In this document: positions 25,920 through 43,399 of the stretch, piece after piece | Numbering within the stretch: the stretch's first letter is position 1 | Layout of the letters: each line of letters opens with the position of its first letter | Assembly: GCA_010093995.1 (NCBI GenBank) | Contig: ML992516.1 | Coordinates: 433,413 to 476,811 of the forward strand | Source of the DNA: Elsinoe ampelina | Lineage: Eukaryota | Reading direction: 5' to 3' | DNA: 43,399 nt | The notes under the pieces: generated by a model | Seen by the model: only the letters and a program-made list of their open reading frames with translations | Databases searched by the model: none | Told to the model about the DNA's origin: nothing | Translations under genes and position numbers: made by a program

Positions 25920-27026
25920 TTCACCGATGAATGGTATACTGCTCTTAAGTTTTCTACGGCGTCACTCGTCATTTTCATCGAGAAGACTTTCGACGACTGG
26001 TATACGACACCAATTCTATACTATTACCACAAGTCGAAACAAAATACCAGTCACGTGACCATCTGCGACCTCTCAATCAAGCTCTGCCTAATCTGAAACC
26101 TTCCACGCTCGACACCATCTTCGACAGAGGTACCCGAGAATGACTGAGATGAGACAAGTTCGACCATCTTTGACAACATCGAACGATGCCAGGGGTATGA
26201 AACAATGATCTTCAATGCTTGGAAAGGAGATGTTGTACCTGAACCTGTTCATTCTCGGCATGATATGGGGGCACTACCAGCCGAGATACGAGAGACACGA
26301 GACAGACTTTACAGAAATGGTAAACTGGTAGGTAGGAAGCCATATTCATCTCTTATTACTGCTTCATGAATCTATTGCTAAATAGCAATGCGTCTTCTTC
26401 TGTATAAAAAGCGACAGGGTATATCCCAAAAAGAAAAACCACACCGACCACTGCGTCTATCTCAACGAGTGCCATAAAACTCCATCCAACCAGTGGGGGT
26501 ATCAGACTCCAGAACGAACAAGAACAATGCGACAGCCTTCTACCATGTCTGGTCTGTTGATCCGTGTTCTACCCGAGAACATGCTGCGATCCTCGAAAGA
26601 AAAAAAAACGCCGATCCATCTCCTTCACCACTTGATTGCAAGAACCGAAAGACGCCTTGCGAGAAGATGAACCGAGGAAGCTGTACAATAAGAGAAGCGC
26701 CGTGGCTGACAGAAAAAAAAAAGAAAGAAGAGCGATGATGATGCCAGTCTCCAGCTGATCAGAAACAAAGGTCCGACTTGCGCAATCATGTTGCAGATGA
26801 CCCAAGATCATCCATCCCAAGCAGGATCAGATGCGACTCGTTGCGAGATAAAAAGAGACGGAATGGGCGAAGAGGGTGTCCCGATCTAGTTAGTCTCAAT
26901 CCAGATCCCACCGGCCAAGCCACACCGGGACTTTCCGAAAAATGGTCAGAAGGACGGTCGGGTCGCAGATCACCCGACTACAAGCCTCAACCTTTGTCGC
27001 GTCGCGTGAGATCCACTATTGCGCGC

Positions 27027-29227
27027 TCATGATTGACCACGGGAGTTGTAATCAGGCATGCCGTAGTTGTACCCCAACGATTGGCTGATGGACGGGATGC
27101 GCTCATGTCGACCACCCATCGGGAGACTGTTGCCGCCTTCCAAGAATGAAGTAAAGTCAAATGATGGTCGTCCGCTGCCAGTCTCGCCTGACATGTAGTT
27201 GGATGTCGGCTGATGCCAGGAAACTGCTTGTGACATTGTGACGGGTGGTCCTCCTGACACTGCCATCATGGTTTGGGATGGTAGAGTGGTGGGTGGCATT
27301 GATTGAGTAGGGTAGTGCATGGGTCCAGGAACTGATGCTGGTTGAGGAGATCTTGATGCGCTGGCATGTCCTCCGATCGATGGCATGGACGATGGAAGAG
27401 CTCCAGCGGGAGATGCAAACGTAGCAGACTGTAAATCGATGATCAGTATTGTGTACAATGTGGGTGTAATCAGGTATAGATAACTCACGTATTTCCCAAT
27501 AATCTTCTTCAATGCATGACTGAGGATTCTCCACGGGAATACCTTGACATCCTTTTCGATATTGCGCGGCTTGGGGCTGGGGAATCCCATGATGATCTTG
27601 AAGAACTCTTCACACTCGGCTCGGGTTTTGCTGACTGTCATTGGTCGGAACCCTTCCAGGTTACGCCGAATCCGGTTCTTTTCCTCAACGGTGAAACGGA
27701 CAGCCACGAGTGACTCTAGCAGCTGGATCGTGTCGACACTGGTGATGTAACATGCCTGCTTCTCCTTCCACCAGATGCAGTTGACATAGATGTTGCCAGG
27801 AGCGCGCGCGTGATCTTCGGGTGTGACCGGTTCAAAGGTAGCATTGATGGTACTGCCTGCCTGGTTGCGTCGGAAGCGGACAAGACGACGATGGGCGGAG
27901 ATTTCATCTTGGGTCCAGCCTTCAGCCATGGAGTTGAGGTCACCGTCGAGTTTGAGGATTGCCTTGTTGGTGTTGGTATACATACTACCTGGGTAGAAGG
28001 TGCTTGCTGGCATGCCTGGGCTGCTATCTTGGAGGGTGGATGTGCGGACAAGAGTGGGAGCGGTGACACCGGATGTGGATGGTAGGTGTCCGGCCATGCT
28101 TGTTGCAACACCTGGACGTTCTTGAATGTAACCGGTGAAGCCGTGGTACTCTGGAGGCTGAACGGACAGGTGAGATGCGGCAGAGACTGGAGATGCGCCG
28201 TAGCGAGGAACATTCTGTTGAGGAGACTGAAAGTTCTGAGGACGAGTCGGAGTATGAGCGTAAGCGTAGTTGACCGGCTGAGGAGGGTTTGAGTATGGTT
28301 AGAGTGTATTGGTCGACATGGGAGAAGATGTGACATTGTCAAACTCTCCAGCACGAAGGTTTGTGTTCATACGCTTTCCGGGGGATTGCTCGGTATGTTC
28401 AGGCGACAGTTTACGCTTTCGCGACAAGCTTGGTGTTGGAGAACCCATGAAGCTGGTCGCATCGGTATAGTTGTAAGTACCGAATGCGACAGCCATGCCT
28501 GGGTTTGTACCGTCGTTGGTATCGAGGGAGAGAGAGACGTTGGTATTGGAAGATCCGGTAGAGTCAAAAGCAGGTACGTCGACTGAAATAGCGTAGTTTC
28601 CTGGTTGATTTGGTCCAGTCAACTTTGAGAGCATACCAGAACAGCGGCGGCTTCCGAAGAGGACTGTAGGTAAAGAGTTGGAAGTCTCCAAGTCTTGTGT
28701 AGCATTGAGATAGACAAAAAGCTTGCGACCTGCAGGACCTTGAGCTGGTGTAAAGTTGGTAACTTCTGTGCGAGGTGCGAAATTCTGGAATGTATTTTGC
28801 TGGTTGTATGCGTCATGCGCTTCGTACTGTTCACCAGACAGGAGAGGCAAGTCTGAATTTGGTAGACCAGATGGTACCTGCGCATGAGTATTCATGTATT
28901 GCCCGTCAAAAGTAGGTTGACCATATCCGGGATAGTTTGATGTCTGATTGGGTCTCGTGGTGGCGTTGTAGTCTAATCGGTCGATTGTCAGGTCATGAGA
29001 CCCTGAAGTGGTCTGCTGAGTAAACTCACCATATATCTCCTGCTTTTGATAGCCCGACATTGAGACCAGACTTTCGTAACCTCCTGTTGGTGATCCTGAT
29101 TGACTATTGGCGGATACAATGGCTTCTGGTGGAATACCGGTCTCGTCGTCTACAATGAGTGGTCCTCTGCTATCAGTCTGGACCTGGTCAGTCTCGGGAG
29201 GACAAGGGTTCAGAGTACAATTACCAT
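27027..29227 (-). CDS. medA: Medusa developmental regulator (MedA/Acr1/Ren1 family) with an in-frame TAA at 28299-28301. Exons 29227-29225, 29177-29030, 28972-27489, 27428-27027
   Basis: Conserved domain KAILKLDGDLNSM..RRLVRF..CIWWKEKQACYITSVDTIQLLESL..RFTVEEKNRIRRNLEGFRPMTVSK..PKPRNIEKDVKVFPW..ALKKIIGKY; introns 27429-27488, 28973-29029, 29178-29224. ORFs 28299-29060 and 27027-28097 are in the same frame, separated by one stop. Start could alternatively be 29060. Confidence 0.88.
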
Positions 29228-31581
29228 GTGGTTGGAAATACTGAGAGGCTGGTAGAGACAGCTCTCTCAGATTTGGGTCTTGAAAGGTTTTTGTAAGGAC
29301 TACCAGCGTCCAGATGATCTATTGGCAATGTTCCAGATTCGAAACCGATATAGTATGACCGTCTACCAGGACAGGAAGAACCCAGAAGGCTGGATATGAC
29401 GATGAAAGACAGGAGTTCGCAGCGGAATATGCGGGTGGATTGACAGGGATGTTGACCAATAGGGTAGAAAGATGCGGCGTTTGTAGTTGCACACCTGGAA
29501 AGAATGGCTGGAACAGTATTGAAAGAATGATCAAGGATGATGTCTATATTTGTCAGTATGGTATGACTTTGGACAGAATATACTGACCAAAGAACTCCTA
29601 CACCTCACATGCAAATCGTATATACAGAACTGTAAGACAAGAAGGGATCTTTGATCAGTCTTGTAGTCCAAAAGGTATCTACCAGTTGAAGTGTCAAGGT
29701 GAATTGACAGGTCGGATAGTGAGACAAGGCGGGTGGATGTCCTGCAGGTATCCGCGTGGTATAGGCTTTCTTGGATTGCTTGCGTGGGGGGGGTGTTGTC
29801 GTCTTTTGAGTCAAGAGGTTATGGATTGTTTCGGATCCAATTATGGTATATCGTTGGGTGTTATCCAAGTAGTCCAGGTAATCCAGTGATCCACAAGAGT
29901 GACAGACCAAAATTCGACAGTGGTTCTTTCCCCAAGAGTGTAAGTTCCGGATAGTAGGGAAGAAGCAAAAGGATTAATCCACAAAATGGGAGGTGACATG
30001 TACAAAAGAATGATCGATTACCAGTACATCGGTTCTGGCGTCAGAGGCTACACTCTGGTAGATAAAAACGGTCGAGCCATTGGAAAAGACGAAATCCCTC
30101 CCCCGTCTTGAAAGTATGGAAAGGCAAAGCATACGGTAGCGCCAGCCGGAATCGGGTGCCAAACGTTGGAGATGGAAAGAACGGGCTCGTGATGGGGGAC
30201 ATGGGAAGTCTACAAGTCGTACAGCCGTTGTAGAGGTCGGTGCGTAGCGTGTGAAGCGGGCAAACGCTATTTCGGGACCGGTCATGGCGCTTTTGGTCTT
30301 GACGAGGGTAAGAGGGGGGTGATGCCGTGATCTTCTGGATGATCCTCATGGGAGGATTTTGTGGTTGATCATTTAGCATGTCGATCCTTTGGATACAAAG
30401 CCATCTGGGCCGATATCTCTCTTGACAGCCAGTACGTCGCAGACTGGATAGAAAAGACGGTTCTTCGTTTGAACAAAACCGGTGTCCGTCTGCCGGACAT
30501 ACCGTGCAAGGACAAGCGACTGCCGTGTGTGGTCAACACCCAAGTGACGCCTCTTTTTGCCCATAGTGTGAGCCAATGCGGTTACCACGCGAGGCGGCGT
30601 AAACCTGGCCCACTGGAGGACCCAAAGAGGCGACTTGGTAGAGTTTAGTACGCAGATCATGCCATGTCAGATCCAGTGTGGTGGGATGCTGCATGTACAG
30701 AGGGTTCCTGCGTTGTGATCTACTTGAAGCATGGGCCATTTGGAGAGCCTGGAGAGATTCTGCGACAGTAGCTCTTCGTTTTATGAATACTGATCGGCGG
30801 GATGCATAGAGGGCTTGCATGATCAGGCATTGGTCAGGCAGAGGAGAAGCAAAAAAAAAAGGACAAACCCTCAATTCTCGGGTCAGCTCTTCTCCTCGGT
30901 TGACCTTCGGGGCTTTTTTTTGTCATGTCGGTCTTCAAATCCCAATCTGGAACCTCTCTTTCCCTTTTTGGAATTTGGGCATTGACCATTTGAGAGCTTT
31001 TGATTTCTGATTGGTCACTTTTCCTCCTTTTTCCCTCTCACTATTGACTTTACCTTGTGCACCTCATCACCACCTTCAGGGATCCTACTCAGGGCAGGTC
31101 CGGCAGGAACATGTCAACCAAGGTCATGTGGTTATAGCCACCAATCTGTTGTGGTCAAAGAGTTCAATATGAAATTTCCCCCTATTCCTGCCCGCCGCAT
31201 CCTCCCGTTATGTATCCTCAGTTTGCATATCATTGTTCAGAACATCTTCATTTCTGTATACTTTTGCTATTCCCATACTTTCACTCGCATTCGCTTTTTG
31301 TTACGCTCCTATCGTTTCGTGCCTTTAGCGCCGGCTAACGGTATGCGATGAAAAAGACTCAACCTCTGACGAACACCGTTGCAATCGATTATTTGCCGTT
31401 GACCAACGACTATTCAACGGTGTAGGAAAGGCTATTGACCGCAGCATCGTCATACTCGGTCCTCCAATACCCAGCCAATTCGTCTGTTCTTCCCGCCGCG
31501 TTGACGATTTCTGTCAAGTATCCGTTGACCCACTTTTTGGTGGCCTCTTCCACGTGTTTCCTGCGTAGTCGTTTTTTTCCC

Positions 31582-33008
31582 TCAATGCATTTCATCGTCG
31601 TCGATCTGTTCGACCTCTGTCTGTGCTTCATCTTCTTTCTCTTCGTCCGTCTGTTGGGTGTTGAGTTGTCCTTGCCTAGACTTGACAGCGATAGGATCTC
31701 CAGCAAGGCAAAGGCGTTTCCAATTACGGAATAGAGCATCAGGCTGTGAATAGTCAGTGTGTGATCTACGACCGTGATACGTAAGACTTACAGTGTAAAG
31801 CATGCCTCCCATCTCTTCAACCTTTTCTGCCACGCGTCCCCACAACTCGTCAGCCATCTGTTTGTCGACCTCAATCTTGGCTTGGAAGAGGACGATTGCA
31901 TCTTCGTCATTGATGGTGACAAAGTTGGTCTTCATCCTGTTGTAGCGGTTGGGTAAGGTGGACTTGCAGTCGGTGTGTAGTCCAGAGATCTCGCCGTACC
32001 TGGCAGTGATGGTGTCCCAGTCTTCTCCGGCCTGCACATGGTCAGTTACGTGAAAGTCGGTCAAGGAGAGCGTGCCTACATCTCTCATGTCGATGAGTGC
32101 CTTATCCGCTTCGTTACATTCTGCGTATGATTTTGGGATCGGCTGCTTGGCTATGGGAGGCTTGCTTGGTGCCTGTCCAGGTCAGTGATCTTATCAACAG
32201 CAATCTCAGACATGGTTACCTTGCGCTTCCTGGCAGTACCGCGAATCGTCGTCCTTGATTTGTAGACTACCATTTGCATATTTTGATCGCCATCCTCGTC
32301 CTTGTACTCCTCACCGTCATCGCCAGCATCACAGGCACTCTCTTCGGAGCTCTCGACAAGCACCGCCTTGCCTCTCTTCTTGGTCGGCGCCGGCGTTGTC
32401 TTTACTGCGCTGCGTCTCTTGCCACTGATGGCTTTGATGAAAGCAGCCTCATCGTCAGACTCTTCGGCGACCTGAGCCTTCTTCGCGGTAGCAGCAGGGG
32501 TCTTCTTAGCAGTTGTGACTGCGCCTGATGGAGTCGCAGTAGTCTTGGCTGCCGGAGTTGAGACCTTGCCTGGCGCTGTGGCTGGCATTGACTTCAATGA
32601 CCTCACCTTGGCTGCTGCAGTGGACGACTTGGATGCCAGACTTCTCACCGCGGCTGTTGAAGTCTTTCCCTTTGATGTTGGAGTGGGCGCTTTGGTTGCG
32701 GCATCATTGGTCTTGGTCGCTGGAGTCGCGGTCTGTCTTTTGATTGAGGCTGTAGTCTTCTGGGTTGTCTGTGAGTTCCTGACCTTCTTCGGAGCAGTGG
32801 CTGGTTCTTCGTTCTCGTCTGGTTCTTCCTCGGCGACCTTCTTGCGCTTGCCTTTGTTTGAGGCAGAAGGGGTCTTCTGTGCCATCGTTGTCTTTGATGT
32901 ACCAGTCTTTGGTACTGATGGAGTGGTCTTGTTGTTGCTGCTTGCAGCCTCTGTCGTCTTCTTTCTCGGAGCGATCGGTGTGTCGTCCGAGTCGCTGGTA
33001 GAAGCCAT
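31582..33008 (-). CDS. Hypothetical nuclear protein, ~427 aa; Lys/Thr/Ala-rich N-terminus and Myb/SANT-like C-terminal helices. Exons 33008-32220, 32172-32080, 32031-31792, 31743-31582
   Basis: Three 47-48 nt introns with CTGAC branch sites keep frame; IPKSYAECNEADKALIDMRDAGEDWDTI..KSTLPNRYNRMK..LWGRVAEKVEEMGG..LFRNWKRL. Confidence 0.75.
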
Positions 33009-33809
33009 GTCTATGTCAGGTCTTGTTGGCCCGACTACTTTCGTGAGGAGGAGGTTGGTGAAAGGTGGAAAGTAGAAGTGTGAGTGCCTGATGACACAAG
33101 ATCGAGACGCGAAGAGACGTGTTGAACTGACGTAAGTAAACAGCATGTGATACTTCAAGTGAAGAAGATCGCCGTGAGCATGTGATCTCGGGTTTGCTGC
33201 TTCTCCTTCACATGTCAGAATCGCTCACGAGCCAGAAACATCAGGTATGCATCTTGATGGCTTCCTTCGGATTGTCGTACCCTCATTGAAGAGACCATGG
33301 CGGGCCATCAGCAGTCAAGGATACCAACCAATCAAAAAGCTCGGCGTTAAATACGTAGAACTATAATTCCTCTGATTAATGTAGTCGACTGAAGATCCAA
33401 GAAGACTTCCATACAGCCCGTTGCGGTGATCTTTCGCCACGGTGGAAGAAAATAGCACAAATCTCACCTGGCCTTGTACGAAGTCGGATCTTCACATTCT
33501 GGCGATTTACATGTGCTTGAATATTTCCCACGTGCTTCGTCATGCTTTCACAATAATGCCATGACAATAATAAGCCTGTTGAGTCGACAATGGCTGGACT
33601 TCTATTGTAGACAATCTCAATTGAGCCTCACAAGCTCTACAGTCGTTTTGAGTTCAACCGAGCCACCCCGGGCTTGGCGTGTTGTACTCCGCGTCGACCT
33701 CTCGTTATCAAATTTGGCTAGCTAGAAGTCCATAGAGAATACTGATAAATTAAAGCTGAAAAAAGGTGTAATAGTCGCTATACTGCTCTAATTAGGTTGT
33801 TACTATTAT

Positions 33810-34810
33810 AGTTAATCATCAGATAGCTAAATTAAAACTAGTAGACATATAGTTCTTACTTGCTAAAGAGTATACTAATTATACTATTTATGCTACTACT
33901 AAGGTAGCTAGAGCTATAATCCGCTAAATTCGACTATCCCTTAAGTTCTTTAGTACTTCTTATTCTTCTATTAAAGCTTATATACTACACCCTTATACTT
34001 TTACCTCTTTCTTAGAAGATATAAGTCCTTTATAGCTAAGCTCTTTCTATACTAACCTATCTAAGGAGGTAATAGCCTACCTAAATAACATCTCTACTAC
34101 TTATCTTAATAAAGTTTAAGCCTTCTTAAGGGAGATATATAATTACTAAGTGTACTTAAGTATAATCTAGTATATAATCTAGCGCTAGTAGTAGTCTTAA
34201 AAGGTAGCTAAGAAGGTAGTAGCTAAAAGAGATATAATACTTAGAGCAAATTAGACTCGAAGGTATATACTTTAGCTAGTTAATAGAATTATTTACATTA
34301 ATAAGTTAGCTTATAATAAGTATATAGTATAGAGGAGATATAGGTAGGCGCCTATTAGTAAGAAGTATATAGATATCTAGCTAAAGTAGTGTAGTAAGAG
34401 GTAAAGCGTGTTACTAGCTATTACTATTAATAGCTATCTCCCTAGTACCTTAATCTACTATAGATTAATCACTAGTAAGATCTTTATTAGCTAGCTAATA
34501 GATGTAATAATACTAGAGCTTCTAGCTAGTATAATCTTTGTTATAGATAATGCTTTAATCTACTAAAGTAATAAGGTAAAGGAGCTAGTATAAGAGTATA
34601 GAAGTTACCTTAAATACCTACTACTCTATTCGCTAGATTTTAATTCTATCGAGTAATTCTTCTTAGTGCTAAAGGCGTAGGTAAAGTAATACTATAATCT
34701 AGTCGCTAGGTACAAGAAATACGCTAATTTCTTAAAGCTAGCTATCTACTTATATAGTAGACTACACGCTAAGATGTACTTTAAGAGCTATAGATATAGT
34801 ATAAGGTTAT
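33810..34810 (+). mobile_element. RIP-degraded Tc1/mariner-IS630-like DDE transposase relic
   Basis: De-RIP reading: YIDESACNE (~34294), VMDNASIH (~34540), YLPPYSPDFNPIEQFFSVLKAW (~34615-34680), HTH-region PTAYLDEVQ..STIWR..WSRKV (~34090-34210). TIRs not identified. Confidence 0.8.
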
Positions 34811-35076
34811 AGGGGATCTATTTAGTACGTAAGAAATTACTTATATTAAATAAGTTTAATACTAAGACCTAGTAAAAACTCTTTACTACTACTATAACTA
34901 CTCTATACTATATATATACTACTCCGAGTTAGATAAACTAAGTCTAGTTTAGTAGCCGAACTAGATTAATATCTATCTTAGCCGCTGAGCTAGTTAAATT
35001 GTCTATTATACTACGTAAATTAGTATCTATATCGGCTACTATAAACTAGGTAAAAGTGCCTATTTTAACTGCTAAG

Positions 35077-35539
35077 TATTACGAACTGTCTAAACATAGC
35101 TTACGCTAGTAGTCTAAGCTAAGCTAAGAACGAGATAGTTCTACTTCTATAGTAGTATAGTACTAAGGTAAGAGTTAGAGAAGGTATATCTTATAGATAA
35201 TAAAGTACAATTAGATAGTATTATAAAGGCTAGCCTTAGTAATACTAGTGTTCGCTATCTAGACAAGGTTAACTATAGTACTTATATAAGATAAGGACTA
35301 CTCCTATATATATATATTCTTTACTATATACTTTATATACTCTATATACTCCGTAGCAAGAGTTAGAGGTAATATAGAGTATATGCCCGCTAGTAACCTA
35401 CGTGCTCTATAGTCTCTAGAGTAGAGCTACTAGAGAAGATAGAGAACTAAGTAAACATCGGGCTAGGTTATATAATAACCTTAGTAGTTTAATTAGTCCT
35501 AATATCTTTATACTTTAGCTATCCTACTAGTTTATAATA
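35077..35539 (-). repeat. 3' LTR (copy A), 463 bp
   Basis: tattacgaact...agtttataata, a RIPped form of TGTTACGAACT...AGTTCGTAACA; colinear with copies B and C. Confidence 0.93.
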
Positions 35540-35613
35540 TTACTCTTCTCCCTTAATCGAGTTATTCTAACGAGTAAGTATTCTTTCTTATCCTTATACG
35601 CTATATACTAAAT

Positions 35614-35953
35614 ATACCTCCTAGTTGTCGAAGGTATAGTAAATCTAGTATATCTATATAAAAGAATCTCTCGGAGTTTATTAAACTATTTAGAACTAAT
35701 ATGCTATAAGCTTACTCTTATTATAAGTCGAAAGAGCTAAACTATAAAGTCTATATTCGGTTAGGTATTTATAGCTAGTATGTTATAAGTAACTACTCGA
35801 GTTATAATATTTAGGTAATAAAATTAGAATAGTAGTATCTCTAGTCTAAGTATATTTATTTATAAAAGGAATTAGTTATAGCTAAGGCTACTAGAAGGGA
35901 AGCTAAAGAAGCTTATAAAAAGGTAAAAGAGGCTTATTAAAGAGCTATAGGTA
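35614..35953 (+). pseudogene. RIPped antisense accessory ORF of the Gypsy element (putative Zn2Cys6-like motif + coiled coil), copy 1, truncated by gap
   Basis: Same frame and offset (75 nt from the LTR) as 43060-43399; only TAA/TAG stops; see findings. Confidence 0.6.
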
Positions 35954-36923
35954 NNNNNNNNNNNNNNNNNNNNNNNNNNNNNNNNNNNNNNNNNNNNNNN
36001 NNNNNNNNNNNNNNNNNNNNNNNNNNNNNNNNNNNNNNNNNNNNNNNNNNNNNNNNNNNNNNNNNNNNNNNNNNNNNNNNNNNNNNNNNNNNNNNNNNNN
36101 NNNNNNNNNNNNNNNNNNNNNNNNNNNNNNNNNNNNNNNNNNNNNNNNNNNNNNNNNNNNNNNNNNNNNNNNNNNNNNNNNNNNNNNNNNNNNNNNNNNN
36201 NNNNNNNNNNNNNNNNNNNNNNNNNNNNNNNNNNNNNNNNNNNNNNNNNNNNNNNNNNNNNNNNNNNNNNNNNNNNNNNNNNNNNNNNNNNNNNNNNNNN
36301 NNNNNNNNNNNNNNNNNNNNNNNNNNNNNNNNNNNNNNNNNNNNNNNNNNNNNNNNNNNNNNNNNNNNNNNNNNNNNNNNNNNNNNNNNNNNNNNNNNNN
36401 NNNNNNNNNNNNNNNNNNNNNNNNNNNNNNNNNNNNNNNNNNNNNNNNNNNNNNNNNNNNNNNNNNNNNNNNNNNNNNNNNNNNNNNNNNNNNNNNNNNN
36501 NNNNNNNNNNNNNNNNNNNNNNNNNNNNNNNNNNNNNNNNNNNNNNNNNNNNNNNNNNNNNNNNNNNNNNNNNNNNNNNNNNNNNNNNNNNNNNNNNNNN
36601 NNNNNNNNNNNNNNNNNNNNNNNNNNNNNNNNNNNNNNNNNNNNNNNNNNNNNNNNNNNNNNNNNNNNNNNNNNNNNNNNNNNNNNNNNNNNNNNNNNNN
36701 NNNNNNNNNNNNNNNNNNNNNNNNNNNNNNNNNNNNNNNNNNNNNNNNNNNNNNNNNNNNNNNNNNNNNNNNNNNNNNNNNNNNNNNNNNNNNNNNNNNN
36801 NNNNNNNNNNNNNNNNNNNNNNNNNNNNNNNNNNNNNNNNNNNNNNNNNNNNNNNNNNNNNNNNNNNNNNNNNNNNNNNNNNNNNNNNNNNNNNNNNNNN
36901 NNNNNNNNNNNNNNNNNNNNNNN
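35954..36923. other. Assembly gap (970 N)
   Basis: Run of N. Confidence 1.
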
Positions 36924-39455
36924 AACTCCTAGTAGATCTATAAATAATTACTAGAATTGTAACGTAAATAGCTTATCTCTATCGGTTATTAGGTCTCGTA
37001 GTACTCTATATTATAAAATAATTATTCGGAGGAAGATAAAGGCTATATCCTTAGTAGTTACTATTGTCTTATATAGTACAAAGTAGTAATACTTCGTAAA
37101 TCTATCTACTAGAACTAGAATGCTATTATACTTTACACCTATAAGAGGTTCTTCTAATAGTAGTAAAGGTTCTATAAAGTCTATTGTAACTAATTACTAT
37201 AGTTTATCTAGTAGTAGCAAGAGTTATAATAGACTATATAGCTTATGTCGTAAGTGCTTAGACTTATAGTATATATTACATATAGTAATATATGTCTTAA
37301 TATCGTTTTAGAGTTCTTTCTATAGGTAGTTTTATATAATAAGTTTAATAGTCTTATTAATCCTACTATGCTCTACTATTAGGTTATTATAGTATATTTA
37401 AATAACTTCTTTCTTCTATTCTTACGTAAGCTTCTAGGTAAGGCTATATAACTACTCTACCTTTAGGTACTTATAGACTAGAGTACTATCTTACTACTTT
37501 AGTATAGAGGCCTCTATTATTATTATATTCTTTAAGTAATTTAGTCGTTAGCTAAGAGCGTCTACTCTACTATTCTCTAATCCCTTAATATAGTAGATCT
37601 AAAAGTTGTAGCTTATAAGTGTTTCTAACTATCGAACCTATTATCTATTAAGAACCTTAGTTATTGTCTAATATAATAGGTTCTTATAGTCGGTGTAGAC
37701 TTATATAGGTAAGATTATTCCTTCTAGGTATACTCTCTATTTGCGGAATGCCTCTATAATTATAAGTAACTCCTTATTATATATATTATAGTTAAGTTTA
37801 AGTCTAGTTATTTTTTGTAAGTAGTATATAATTAAGTAGCGTTATTCTTTTACGTCCTTCTATACTAGATACACTTCTATTATAAAGTCTAAGGCATTCG
37901 TTTCTAGTAGTACTTATTAGTCTAGGTCGAAGAGTACTAGGATAGGTGCTATTATAAGTCTAAGCTTTAGCTCCTTAAAGGCCTATCTATATTTCTTATT
38001 AAAGACAAATCTAGTTTCTTTCTTTATAAGGTTAGATATTAGCGCTACTACCTTAGAGAATTCTTTAACAAACTTGTAGTAGTAGTTAAAGAACTCTAGT
38101 AGCGCTTAAACCTTCTTAACTATAGTAGGTTCTAGCTAGTCGTTTACTAACTTAATCTTTTTTAGGTCGGGTTTAATACTATTAGTAGATATAACATAGT
38201 CTAGAAATTGTATCTTATGTTTATAAAACTTATACTTAAAGAGCTTTACTAGTAGGTCTTTTTCTTTTAGTTTCTATAGCACTTTATAAATATATCCTAC
38301 ATGTTTATTATATATCTTTAAGAAGATAATAATATTGTCTAAATATACTAAGATAAAGTCGTCGAGGTATTCTTATAGAGTATTATTAATTAACTCTTAG
38401 AAGGTTATAGAAGCGTTAGTTAACCTAAAGAGTATAACGAGGTACTTATATAGACTCTATTACGTTCTAAAAGCCGTCTTCTACTCCTTACTCTCCTTTA
38501 TTTATACTTAATAATAGGCGTCTCTAATGTCGATTATAGTAAACTATTTAGCTCTAAGTAGTCGGTCTTAAAGTTTGTTAATCCTTAGTAGAGAATAGTA
38601 ATTCTTTCTAGTAAGTACATTAAGTTTCTAGTAATTAATATATATTTATAATATTCTATCCTTTTTAGGTATAAAAAGCACTCCGTATGTAATAGGTAAT
38701 TTTAATAGTTATATAAATCCTTTAAGTAAGTACTTATCGATATAGTTCTTAAGAACGTCCTTCTCTTATTTTAATAGTAGTATAAGACCTTAATAGTGTA
38801 TTAGGGATTTACTCTCTTTAAAGAGTATTTCGTAATTCTATAGTTTATATTAGAGTAAGGCTATAATGCCTTTTCTTTCTTTAAATAAGTCCTTAAAGTC
38901 TTTATATTTCAGCGGAAGTACTTAATCGCTTATACTAGTAATAGCTCTAACTATTAGTCGTACCTATACTATCCTTATAGTTAGTATCTATAGAGCTAAT
39001 TATACTCTCTATGTCTTATAATTATACTTAGAGAATTTAAGTGTTTCTTTAATCTAGTTTATGTCTAGATTATGTTATTAAAGCTAGTCTATACTAAGTA
39101 CTATATTGTACTATATGTCTACTATATCGATTAATTATTTTTCTATATATGTTTTAATTTTAATTATAACGTTCTATAGTTCCTAAGTAACTTTCCTATT
39201 CTTCTCTATAGAGGTTCTATTCGCTATAGTAAGTAAGTAAGGTAACTCCTTCTAATATTAATAAGGTTTAAGCTAATTAGCAATTGTTATAGAGATATAG
39301 CTACGGTTAGCTCCTAAATCTATTATTGCTCTTACCTTACTCCCTTATATTTCGACTTCTAGTATAAAGTAGTTTAATATATAGATCTTTATTATATTAA
39401 GGCTTTAGCTAGTGTTATTATCTTACCTTATCGAGCAATAACTAGCTAGTTTTTT
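36924..39455 (-). pseudogene. Gypsy pol relic (protease, RT, RNase H, integrase; 3' end in gap)
   Basis: De-RIP motifs: IDSGANRSYIS (~39295-39330), KTAFRT (~38470), YLVMPFGLTNAP (~38410-38445), EYLDDF..YLDDIIIF (~38325-38372), ETDASDF (~37890), DKELLAI (~37765), YTDHKNL (~37690), integrase HHCC region (~37260-37380), MDFIEPLP (~37165-37185). Confidence 0.9.
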
Positions 39456-41434
39456 GTTATTATAGCTCCTTAGATAAGTAGCTAATTCCTTTCTATATAT
39501 ATCTACTATTAGTACTATATCTATTAGGCAAGTTATGTTTTGTTACTGTTTAATATAGTAAGGTAAACTTCTAGCGCCTAAGTCCCTTAGTAACTATAAA
39601 GTCTAATAATTCTCTACTAGTTATACTAAGTAGTGTTATATACCTATATTAGTATAACTATTCTTTCCGGGTGTAGCTAGGTATTAGCATTAAAGATAAA
39701 AACAAGTTATGTAAATTTGTCTTATTATATCCTATTTTAGTAGTAGGTGTATATTATTATATAATTCCTCTATATCTCTATAAGGTATACTTTAAGTCGT
39801 CTACCTAGTAGTAGTACGTTATTATTATTATTGTTATTAGATAAGTCCTTATCTATGTTATTATATTATAGTTATTTAGTATATTCTTCGTTATATTTCT
39901 CTTTGTCGCTACTACCCCTAGTATAGTTATAGTTAGTAAGGCTATACTAAGTATATTCTCTTACTTAGCTATAGGGGATAGTACTATCTATTTCAATTAC
40001 CGAGAAGTCTATAGTGTATTTAAGACTAATAGCGTCTTCTCTAAGTACGTCGTATAAGTAGATAGTATAGTACTATTTACAATTTAGATTTGTATATTTC
40101 TAGAGTAATATATAATATACCTTTCCTTGTAGTTCGCTATAAAGGCTAAAGGTAAGGCTACTATATTATTATATAGCACTTACGTTCTAATACTTCGTCT
40201 CGATAATCGTATATTAGTAATTGTTACTAACTACCTTCTAAGGTTAGTTACTATTACTACTAATTATAGAAAGCTCTTCTAGGTTAAGTTTCTAGTCTAG
40301 CTATTTTATTAGTTACCTACGCTTAGATAGCTTATATAGGAACTAACTAGATTCTTACTTGTCTAATAAGTAAATATAATAAGAGTTATTATAATATACT
40401 ATCTATAATAGCGTCGCGTATTAGCTTTATTATTTACTATTAGTTATAGAGATATTAAGCGTAATATCCGGAGAGGATTCTACTATCTCTCGAGCTATCG
40501 TAGACTTCTTTTATATTTCCTTACCTACGCTAAAGGTCGTTAGGTCTTCTATAGTAGTATTAGCCTTTTTCTCTACTAGCCTAGTAACTATTATATGTAA
40601 TTTATTAGCTAGCGCCTCTTATCGGTAGTCTCTAGCTCGATATCTAGGTCTTTTACACTTAAAATATAAGTTATCTTATCTATACTTCTCTCTCTCTTTT
40701 CTACTAAGGAACTTTCCTCTATAGCTATAACTTTGTATCTATAAGGAGTAGCCTTTACGTATAGTATTAAGTTCTATAGGGTCTCTATAGTTTTAAGAGG
40801 AACACGTATATCTAGTATTTACCTTATATTCTCTATAACGTTCTATATATCGTTTATAAAGTTTATTATTAATAGCAATTATAGTGTCTACTAGTTCCTA
40901 AAGGCTATCGAGTAGCTCGGGTATTATTTAGTCTTTAACTAAGTCGCTTAGTCCTTAATAGAATACTAAGTATTTAGTACTATCGTCCTAGTCTAGATAT
41001 ATTACAAGTTATTAGAACTAGGAATAGTACTAAGCTATAGACCTACGTTGTTATAGTTGTCAAATCTTTATTATAGTAATGCGTTTCTTATTAGATACGT
41101 TAAAGACTTACTTAATCTTTGCCTAGAAGATACTAAAGCTCTTAAAGATAGCCTTTATATCTAGGCCTAGTTATCTATCTAGGTAGCTACTTATATAAGG
41201 CTTAAACTACTCGAAGGTAGCGCCTTTAAGGTATATTCTAGTATAGAGGACCTTTACTACGTCGTTAGTATACTTGTCTCTCTCTAGAGCAAAGAAGGCT
41301 TTAAGTTAAACAAGAAAGCGCCTTAAGTAGGCGTAGTCCCTATAGAAGAGTTCTACTTCTAACTTAGGCTTACTCTATCCTTCTATACTAAAAGACCTTC
41401 TATATTTGCTCGAGGTTAAACTAGTAGTAGATAT
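39446..41434 (-). pseudogene. Gypsy gag relic, ~660 codons
   Basis: One frame from a probable start (ATA from ATG, 41434) through ELFxGDxAxLRRFLVQLKAFF (~41290-41360) and CCHC knuckle CFKCxRPGHRARDC (~40625-40670) to AAC TAG at 39451-39446. Confidence 0.8.
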
Positions 41435-41550
41435 GTCGTTAATAGTAAGCTTTCCTAGCTTACTAGCGATTAAAGATACTAATAGTAACTTAGAGTAAGA
41501 GTTACTTATTAACCTTGTAGCGTGCTATACTATAGTAAGGGTAGTTAAAA

Positions 41551-42013
41551 TGTTACGAACTGTCTAAATATAGCCTACGCTAGTAGTCTAAGCTAAGCTA
41601 AGAACGAGGTAGTTCTACTTCTATAGTAGTATAGCACTAAGGTAAGAGTTAGAGAAGGTATATCTTATAGATAATAAAGTATAATTAGATAGTATTATAA
41701 AGGCTAGCCTTAGTAATACTAGTGTTCGCTATCTAGACAAGGTTAACTATAGTACTTATATAAGGTAAGAACTACTCCTATATATATATATTCTTTACTA
41801 TATACTCTATATACTCTATATACTCTATAGCAAGAGTTAGGAGTAATATAAAGTATACACCTACTAGTAACCTATGTACTCTATAGTCCCTAGGGTAGAG
41901 CCGCTAGAGAAGATAGAGAACCGGGTAAATATTAGGCTAGGTTACGTAATAACCTTAGTAGTTTAATTAGTCCTAACGTCTCTACGCTTTAGCTGTCCTA
42001 CTAGTTCGTAACA
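41551..42013 (-). repeat. 5' LTR (copy B), 463 bp
   Basis: Intact TG...CA ends with 11-bp inverted termini TGTTACGAACT / AGTTCGTAACA. Confidence 0.95.
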
Positions 42014-42522
42014 CTAAGATAGTAAGGTATCTAACTTACTTAATTCGATCTAGCTCGTATAACTATCTTAGAGTAATACTAGCGCTTAAAAGAGCTAATT
42101 TAGCTTTAAATCTAGTATAGAAGGCCTTTATTAAAGGCCTAGGTATCTCTCTACCTATCTAAGTATATACCTCTTATACTATCGAGGTTGTAATTCTTCT
42201 TCTTTAGCTTAAATTTAACCTAATCTAGTACCTAAATATCCCTTTTAAAGCTTCTCTTTCTCTTTATCTACTTAAAGAATTTAGTTAAAACTTTATAAGA
42301 GTTAGCCTTAGAGGTAATAGGTAAGGATCTTAAGTTATTTATAGGCCCTAAGCACTACTATAGCTAGTAAGAAGCAATCGAGTTTATAATATTAATATAG
42401 TTAATAGGTGTTAAAGGGAGTATAAAAGGCACTAAAGATACTAAAGACATTAGTGTTAGTAGTGTTAGTAGAGCACTTTTAATACTCCTCGAGGCCTTTA
42501 AGTAATTAAGGCTTAATATAAG

Positions 42523-43399
42523 TGTTACGAACCGTCTAAACATAGCTTACGCTAGTAGTCTAAGCTAAGCTAGAAACGAGGTAGTTCTACTTCTATAGTA
42601 GTATAGTACTAAGGTAAGAGTTAAAGAAGGTATGTCTTATAGATAATAAAGTACAATTAGATAGTATTATAAAGGCTAGCCTTAGCAATACTAGTGTTCG
42701 CTATCTAGACAAGGTTAACTATAGTACTTATATAAGGTAAGGACTATTTCTATATATATATGTTCTCTATTACGTTCTCTATATACTCTATATACTCTAT
42801 AGCGAGAGTTAGAGGCAATATAGAGTACACGTCTACTAGTAACCTACGTACTCTATAGTTTTAGAGGTAGAGCTACTAGAGAAGATAGAGAACTAAGTAA
42901 ATGTTACGCTAAGTTACGTAATAATCTCGGTAGCTTAATTAGTCCTAACGTCTCTATATTCTAGCTATCCTACTAGTTTGTAACATTACTCTCCTCCTTT
43001 AATCGAGTTATTCTAACGAGTAAGTATTCTTCCTTATCCTTACGCGCTATATACTAAATATGTCTCCTAGTTATTAAAGGTATAGCAAATCTAGTATATC
43101 CGTACGAAAGAATCTCTCGGAGTTTATTAAACTATTTAGAACTAATATACTATAGGCTTATTCTCGTTGCAAATTAAAGGGGCTAGACTATAAGGTCTAT
43201 GTTCGGTCGGGTATCTATAGCTAGTATATCGTAAGTAACTACTTAGGTTATAATATTTAAGTAACAAAATTAGAATAGTAGCGTCTTTAGTCTAAGCATA
43301 TTTGTTTATAAAAGGAATTAGTTATAGCTAAGGCTACTAGAAGGGAAGCTAAAGAAGCTTATAAAAAGGTAAAAGAGGCTTATTAAAGAGCTATAGGTA
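42523..43399 (-). mobile_element. Second copy of the same Gypsy family: 3' LTR (copy C, 42523-42985), PPT and adjacent internal region; partial
   Basis: TGTTACGAACC...TTTGTAACA, 463 bp; PPT AAAGGAGGAGAG at 42989-43000; 42986-43399 colinear with 35540-35953. Confidence 0.93.
43060..43399 (+). pseudogene. RIPped antisense accessory ORF, copy 2 (ATG retained)
   Basis: ATG at 43060; ..AYSRCKLKGLDYKVYVRSGIYS*YIVSNYLGY.. then AKATRREAKEAYKKVKEAY*RAIG. Confidence 0.6.

Follow-up and report, generated by a model that had tools for sequence, protein, structure and literature searches.

The closest described counterparts of the gene studied here are the MedA/Medusa regulators of Aspergillus nidulans and Aspergillus fumigatus. 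The role of MedA in conidiation and development is established in A. fumigatus, where the domain spanning residues 346 to 557 is needed, and also suffices, for function (PMC3503810). A second point of comparison is provided by PUK1 and other premature-stop-correction genes of Fusarium graminearum, which, like the gene described below, have an in-frame stop within a conserved developmental open reading frame (ORF). The F. graminearum sites, which are specific to the sexual stage and conserved among relatives, are UAG codons that editing turns into UGG (PMC11156358). In the literature on medA in Elsinoe, with matches judged mostly by title, nothing on this gene was found, and nothing relevant to natural medA nonsense alleles affecting conidiation appeared among the matches listed. 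Elsinoe ampelina, the source of the DNA analyzed here, is a grapevine-scab-type pathogen belonging to the Myriangiales.

The window is a stretch of 43,399 nucleotides of E. ampelina DNA (assembly GCA_010093995.1, contig ML992516.1, positions 433,413 to 476,811 of the forward strand), and all coordinates refer to its first letter as position 1. Its minus strand contains a medA gene with an in-frame stop codon upstream of the conserved domain, and the main features are as follows.

27027 to 29227, minus strand: medA/DUF7082 gene, from the annotated ATG (29227..29225) to the TGA (27029..27027), supported by the collinear alignment of relatives, PF23305, and X3 coverage.
27498 to 27965, minus strand: DUF7082 domain (Pfam PF23305), residues 366 to 521 of the read-through translation P0001, downstream of the TAA.
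28299 to 28301, minus strand: premature TAA stop codon, seen by direct reading, in DNA contig X1, in spliced RNA contig X3, and as the end of the public 274-aa protein P0122.

The read-through translation P0001 comprises 677 residues, with the TAA read as X at residue 254, and the Pfam match to DUF7082 (PF23305) is strong (E value of 5.8e-70, 234.5 bits versus a gathering cut-off of 27). Of 7998 candidates scored in a search of a protein collection, 2292 matched at E ≤ 0.001, and the best 120 of these were listed. Among the matches listed, the best by BLASTP are Elsinoe australis (80% identity, with 100% of the query covered), Sphaceloma murrayae (78%), and Myriangium duriaei (55%), and one listed protein (P0063) carries the source name “transcriptional regulator medusa”; in one shared alignment, the identities are 98% for Elsinoe batatas, 86% for E. 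australis, and 84% for S. murrayae. Single full-length proteins of relatives span both halves, before and after the TAA, in collinear alignment, and the split frame is therefore no chance pattern of ORFs. The E. ampelina gene shares full-length collinear homology and the strong DUF7082 match with the MedA/Medusa regulators, and the counterpart of the A. fumigatus functional fragment (residues 346 to 557) is present and conserved in it; unlike in those regulators, the frame is cut upstream of the domain, and the product in the annotation is an N-terminal fragment of 274 aa. The intact orthologue of E. batatas (KAG8629705.1, P0123, 658 aa) is 98% identical over the aligned length, shares the in-frame introns, and carries identical residues on both sides of the site (NTL-S-PYSNPPQPV), but it has a serine where E. 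ampelina has the TAA.

Direct reading of the letters places the TAA at 28301..28299 of the minus strand in the context ACACTC TAA CCATAC. It is the sole stop that separates two open stretches of the same frame, 29318..28299 (339 codons) and 28298..27027 (423 codons), and it is codon 254 if numbering begins with the ATG at 29060, and codon 275 of 678 if it begins with the publicly annotated start. A preliminary description, made from the letters of the window, had reported a single in-frame TAA in the middle of medA, at about codon 275 of ~678 and upstream of the conserved domain, between the residues ...SSPMSTNTL and PYSNPPQPVNY...; translation confirms these flanks, the codon number agrees with the annotated N terminus, and the DUF7082 domain (27965..27498) indeed follows the stop.

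Four public runs (X1, X3, X4, and X13) were compared over 26900 to 29400 as assembled contigs. From the DNA run X1, possibly the one used for the assembly, comes a single 8845-nt contig with a word depth of 233 and no other letters over 26900 to 29400, and X3 gives a 4066-nt contig on the gene strand with a depth of 103 and, likewise, no other letters; the TAA is present in both. X3 carries the same species label as X1 but comes from another sample and study, and it may represent the same isolate. It skips 27429 to 27488 (60 nt) and 28973 to 29029 (57 nt), both with GT..AG ends on the gene strand, and because of these splice joints alone we take it as spliced RNA, its record bearing no RNA label. 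The TAA is thus genuinely present in DNA and RNA, medA is transcribed, and in neither contig does an uninterrupted frame join the N-terminal region to DUF7082. Contigs drop rare variants, so that minor spliced, edited, or alternative-start forms would be missed, and the growth stage of X3 is unspecified. The introns and intron-like stretches of the gene are listed below.

28973 to 29029, minus strand: true intron, 57 nt (GTGAGT..TTAG), in frame and stop-free, skipped in X3 with CT..AC ends on the plus strand.
27429 to 27488, minus strand: true intron, 60 nt (GTGAGT..ACAG), in frame and stop-free, skipped in X3.
28278 to 28334, minus strand: rejected candidate intron, 57 nt (GTCACA..CTCTAAC..CAG), which is coding sequence; no X3 joint, and 11 relatives align across it.
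29178 to 29224, minus strand: annotated 5' intron, 47 nt (GTAATT..CAG), directly after the ATG at 29227..29225; needed by the P0122 model and unspliced in X3.

In the alignments, the 19 residues that the 57-nt true intron would encode (GEFTQQ..DRL) are absent from relatives, and those of the 60-nt intron (VSYLYL..DLQ) are absent from 9 of the 10 full-length relatives aligned, being kept only in the E. batatas model P0123. This model carries the 60-nt intron as 20 extra coding residues, whereas the E. ampelina RNA contig shows it spliced; the coding status of the intron in E. batatas looks like an annotation artefact.

For the column of the stop codon, we aligned 10 relatives chosen from the 120 best-listed matches together with E. 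batatas, giving 11 sequences. Serine occupies the column in 6 of them, including all of the 5 closest (E. batatas, E. australis, S. murrayae, M. duriaei, and Dothideomycetidae sp. 11243); aspartate is found in 3, glutamate and asparagine in 1 each, and glutamine or a gap in none. We infer that the ancestral residue at the TAA site was serine, and the exact ancestral codon is likewise deduced from protein alignments only. A serine codon can become TAA in one step only via a second-position transversion. Taken with the DNA and RNA contigs, these data indicate that the TAA is very probably a genuine and recent serine-to-stop nonsense allele of medA, not of the RIP type, which removes the C-terminal DUF7082 region.

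In the mechanism that we propose, an ancestral serine codon would have been converted to TAA by a single transversion; medA is still transcribed and its two real introns are removed, with the main mRNA retaining the TAA, unspliced and unedited. Translation would then end after ~274 residues, and the product would be devoid of the entire conserved C-terminal DUF7082 region. Because the counterpart domain is needed in A. fumigatus and lies after the TAA in E. ampelina, the truncation should abolish function, and, by analogy, MedA activity is expected to be lost or strongly reduced in the sequenced isolate. A shortened protein, lost function, and a possible effect on sporulation are all predictions of this reading. 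Cultures of Elsinoe often sporulate poorly, and rare sporulation, though compatible with a medA defect, does not count as evidence of it. For E. ampelina itself, sporulation on artificial media is reported to be rare (PMC8295512). Should the sequenced isolate prove to be a medA mutant, the way it sporulates and infects may be atypical of E. ampelina. In other respects, the allele is an ordinary nonsense mutation of a known regulator.

The half of the gene downstream of the TAA is well preserved. In the comparison with E. batatas, with the intron-coded residues left out, 4 of 234 residues differ upstream of the TAA and 6 of 403 downstream. When these changes are polarized with E. australis and S. 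murrayae, 2 upstream and 2 downstream (plus 1 ambiguous) fall on the E. ampelina lineage, none of them in DUF7082, and neither frameshifts nor further stops occur downstream of the TAA. Because 403 downstream codons show no decay, the TAA appears to be very young relative to the split from the nearest sequenced relatives. An alternative explanation for the preserved frame is that it is still under selection, for example, if the C-terminal domain is made in another way. Run X4 represents a close relative (organism B), in which 33 of 729 and 51 of 611 letters differ in two contigs that flank and cover the site. Forty of its 98 differences, those outside 28101 to 28776, were listed, and of the 31 that lie downstream of the TAA, 25 are at third codon positions, 2 are at second positions, and 4 are in the intron. 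At codon 346 (28023 to 28025, minus strand), two positions differ in X4, which would give asparagine where E. ampelina and the E. batatas protein have serine; organism B is therefore a close relative that is not identical to the E. batatas reference protein.

Several other explanations of the TAA were weighed. A sequencing or assembly error, one of the options raised in the preliminary description, can practically be dismissed, since the separately built DNA contig (X1, depth of 233) and RNA contig (X3, depth of 103) both carry the stop. The same description had drawn attention to a 57-nt GT..AG stretch at 28334..28278 with a CTAAC box and the nonconsensus donor GTCACA, and this stretch does exist as described. 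Its ends, the box, and a length equal to that of the true first intron would all suit an in-frame intron containing the TAA, spliced either constitutively or in a regulated manner (a poison or nascent intron). However, X3 is continuous over 27489 to 28972 with no other letters, its only joints being the two true introns, and thus shows no junction over 28278 to 28334; the donor GTCACA departs from those of the other introns of medA (GTGAGT, GTGAGT, and GTAATT); and the 19-aa gap that was anticipated in orthologs is found in none of the 11 relatives, in which the stretch is conserved as protein (NVTSSPMS.N.L.PYS) with an invariant P247. With no junction in X3 and no gap in the relatives, the candidate intron is rejected for the main RNA form, and we regard this explanation as highly improbable. 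The case calls for caution in reading raw sequence, as true introns that are stop-free and in frame (57 and 60 nt) make such a 57-nt GT..AG look-alike tempting yet wrong. An equally improbable origin is leakage of RIP from the neighboring repeat block, changing CAA (Gln) to TAA. A strongly RIP-like block does begin ~5 kb away, at 33.4 kb, and TpA is the RIP product dinucleotide, but the glutamine anticipated at this codon in orthologs is present in 0 of the 11 relatives, and the closest ones carry serine. RIP produces C>T and G>A transitions, and because the change from serine to TAA needs a transversion, a RIP-type route from CAA to TAA is unsupported. In addition, the RIP indices are normal both in the gene region at 26900 to 29400 (TpA/ApT of 0.64 and (CpA+TpG)/(ApC+GpT) of 1.17) and at 29401 to 33400 (0.62 and 1.22, respectively), and the other changes on the E. 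ampelina lineage are not in excess. The first option of the preliminary description, a CAA>TAA nonsense allele created by RIP, is therefore upheld in one part, a true nonsense allele of a conidiation regulator seen in DNA and RNA, and fails in the other, the RIP origin (Gln in 0/11, Ser in 6/11, and normal indices).

Beyond the origin of the stop, ways in which it might be bypassed have to be considered. Stage-specific A-to-I editing of the mRNA could mend the TAA during sexual development, and fungal editing favors an A that follows U and often occurs at stop codons (PMC11156358). The same report nevertheless makes this route hard to apply here: known premature-stop correction converts UAG to UGG, a single edit of UAA would yield UGA, which is still a stop, and editing has been reported from Sordariomycetes and a single Pezizomycete only, with none detected in A. 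nidulans or Botrytis cinerea (PMC11156358). In contrast to the F. graminearum sites, the E. ampelina codon is UAA, not UAG; relatives carry a sense codon, serine in all five of the closest, and hence there is no conserved editing site; and X3 is unchanged at the TAA, with no A>G in this one contig of unspecified stage, in which minor variants would be hidden. Editing, which had been offered among the earlier options, is thus extremely improbable, two edits being needed for UAA. The remaining explanation is that MedA function is kept through a C-terminal product containing the whole DUF7082 domain, made either from a downstream start (by an internal transcript or by reinitiation) or by low readthrough of UAA-C; the relevant start is the following.

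28095 to 28097, minus strand: first in-frame ATG after the TAA (Met322), 12 codons upstream of APTLVRTST.

This rescue seems unlikely, though less so than the routes above. In its favor, the 403 downstream codons are fully preserved and a C directly follows the TAA, a context said to favor leakiness. A very young mutation would account just as well for the intact frame, however, and an out-of-frame ATG at 28213, which opens a 165-codon ORF, comes before Met322; a conserved readthrough motif is impossible since relatives carry a sense codon, and an internal start is not visible in the data, which consist of contigs. Reinitiation after an ORF of ~274 codons is normally very inefficient, and UAA is the tightest stop codon, both of which count against rescue. 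On the other side, APTLVRTST corresponds to the beginning of the A. fumigatus MedA 346-557 fragment, for which primer MedA1036-F encodes NPTLIRTST, and this fragment alone complemented a medA mutant (PMC3503810). If the C-terminal product is made, the allele would have mild effects and might be maintained in the species, or even have reached fixation. On balance, we favor the nonsense allele with loss of the DUF7082 region.

The public annotation already splits the gene at the TAA. The protein KAF2219585.1 (P0122, “hypothetical protein BDZ85DRAFT_43823 [Elsinoe ampelina]”, 274 aa) shows 100% identity, and its final residues, ...SSPMSTNTL, directly precede the stop, so that the truncated model is visible there; it was the sole match among 41 candidates in a search among short proteins, and the full-length E. 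batatas protein P0123 falls in its 90% cluster. A second short model (P0124, 148 aa, MAEGW...GKYV), the sole match among 103 candidates in a second such search, covers part of DUF7082; neither search revealed fragments from other isolates. This model (27486 to 27929, minus strand) holds only the core of the domain, starting at Met378, and its last V is the first codon of the 60-nt intron; no stop is located there in the E. ampelina frame, and P0124 seems to reflect an odd splitting of the locus by the gene caller. As the annotation displays a 274-aa “hypothetical protein”, the medA orthologue of this grapevine pathogen is hidden in its public genome, and counts of conidiation genes across Elsinoe genomes will miss medA.

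The spread of the allele within the species was approached through run X13, which bears the same species label but belongs to a different study. Its one contig, of 183 nt (28293 to 28475) at a depth of 3.1, has a single T>G on the plus strand somewhere within it, and a serine codon would show exactly T>G at 28300 on this strand. That the X13 change falls in the stop codon is a tentative possibility, which we rate at somewhat below an even chance; at this depth, it may point to an intact allele in the species and may equally be a synonymous SNP or a low-depth error. The table of differences for the runs holds 98 rows, the same number as the places at which X4 differs, which hints that the X13 T>G coincides with an X4 T>G place and would then be an ancestral letter. 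A metagenome scan with a 27-letter pattern around the TAA codon gave 0 matches. It is rather unlikely, but worth stating, that the TAA is common or fixed in E. ampelina and that the species has no full-length MedA, or only an N-terminally shortened MedA starting at Met322. Such a shortened protein would mirror, in nature, the A. fumigatus finding that a C-terminal fragment alone was sufficient, and fixation with no full-length MedA would fit the rare sporulation on artificial media (PMC8295512).

The 5' end of the gene shows features of its own. The 47-nt 5' intron on which the annotated start depends is not removed in RNA, the X3 piece from 29030 to 29400 being continuous. When this intron is left unspliced, the ATG at 29227..29225 opens only a 5-codon upstream ORF, and no ATG lies in frame between the conserved N-terminal extension (TDSRGPLIVDDETGIPPEAIV...) and the preceding stop at 29321-29319; for the N terminus of medA, a retained intron, a less common spliced form, and a non-AUG start are all possible. 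Upstream of 29400, X3 continues for 1412 nt, and it extends 270 nt past 26900 (~26630 to 30812), which suggests either a very long 5' leader of medA or a contig merged with a neighboring transcript. At the far end of the window, the block from 33401 to 43399 has a TpA/ApT of 1.8 to 2.1 and a (CpA+TpG)/(ApC+GpT) of 0.17 to 0.32; it is strongly RIP-like and AT-rich (GC of 0.27 to 0.32), with a sharp boundary, and the genes at 29401 to 33400 are free of leakage. A run of 970 N at 35954 to 36923 within this block, either a scaffold gap or a masked stretch, accounts for a GC value of 0.023 in the composition.
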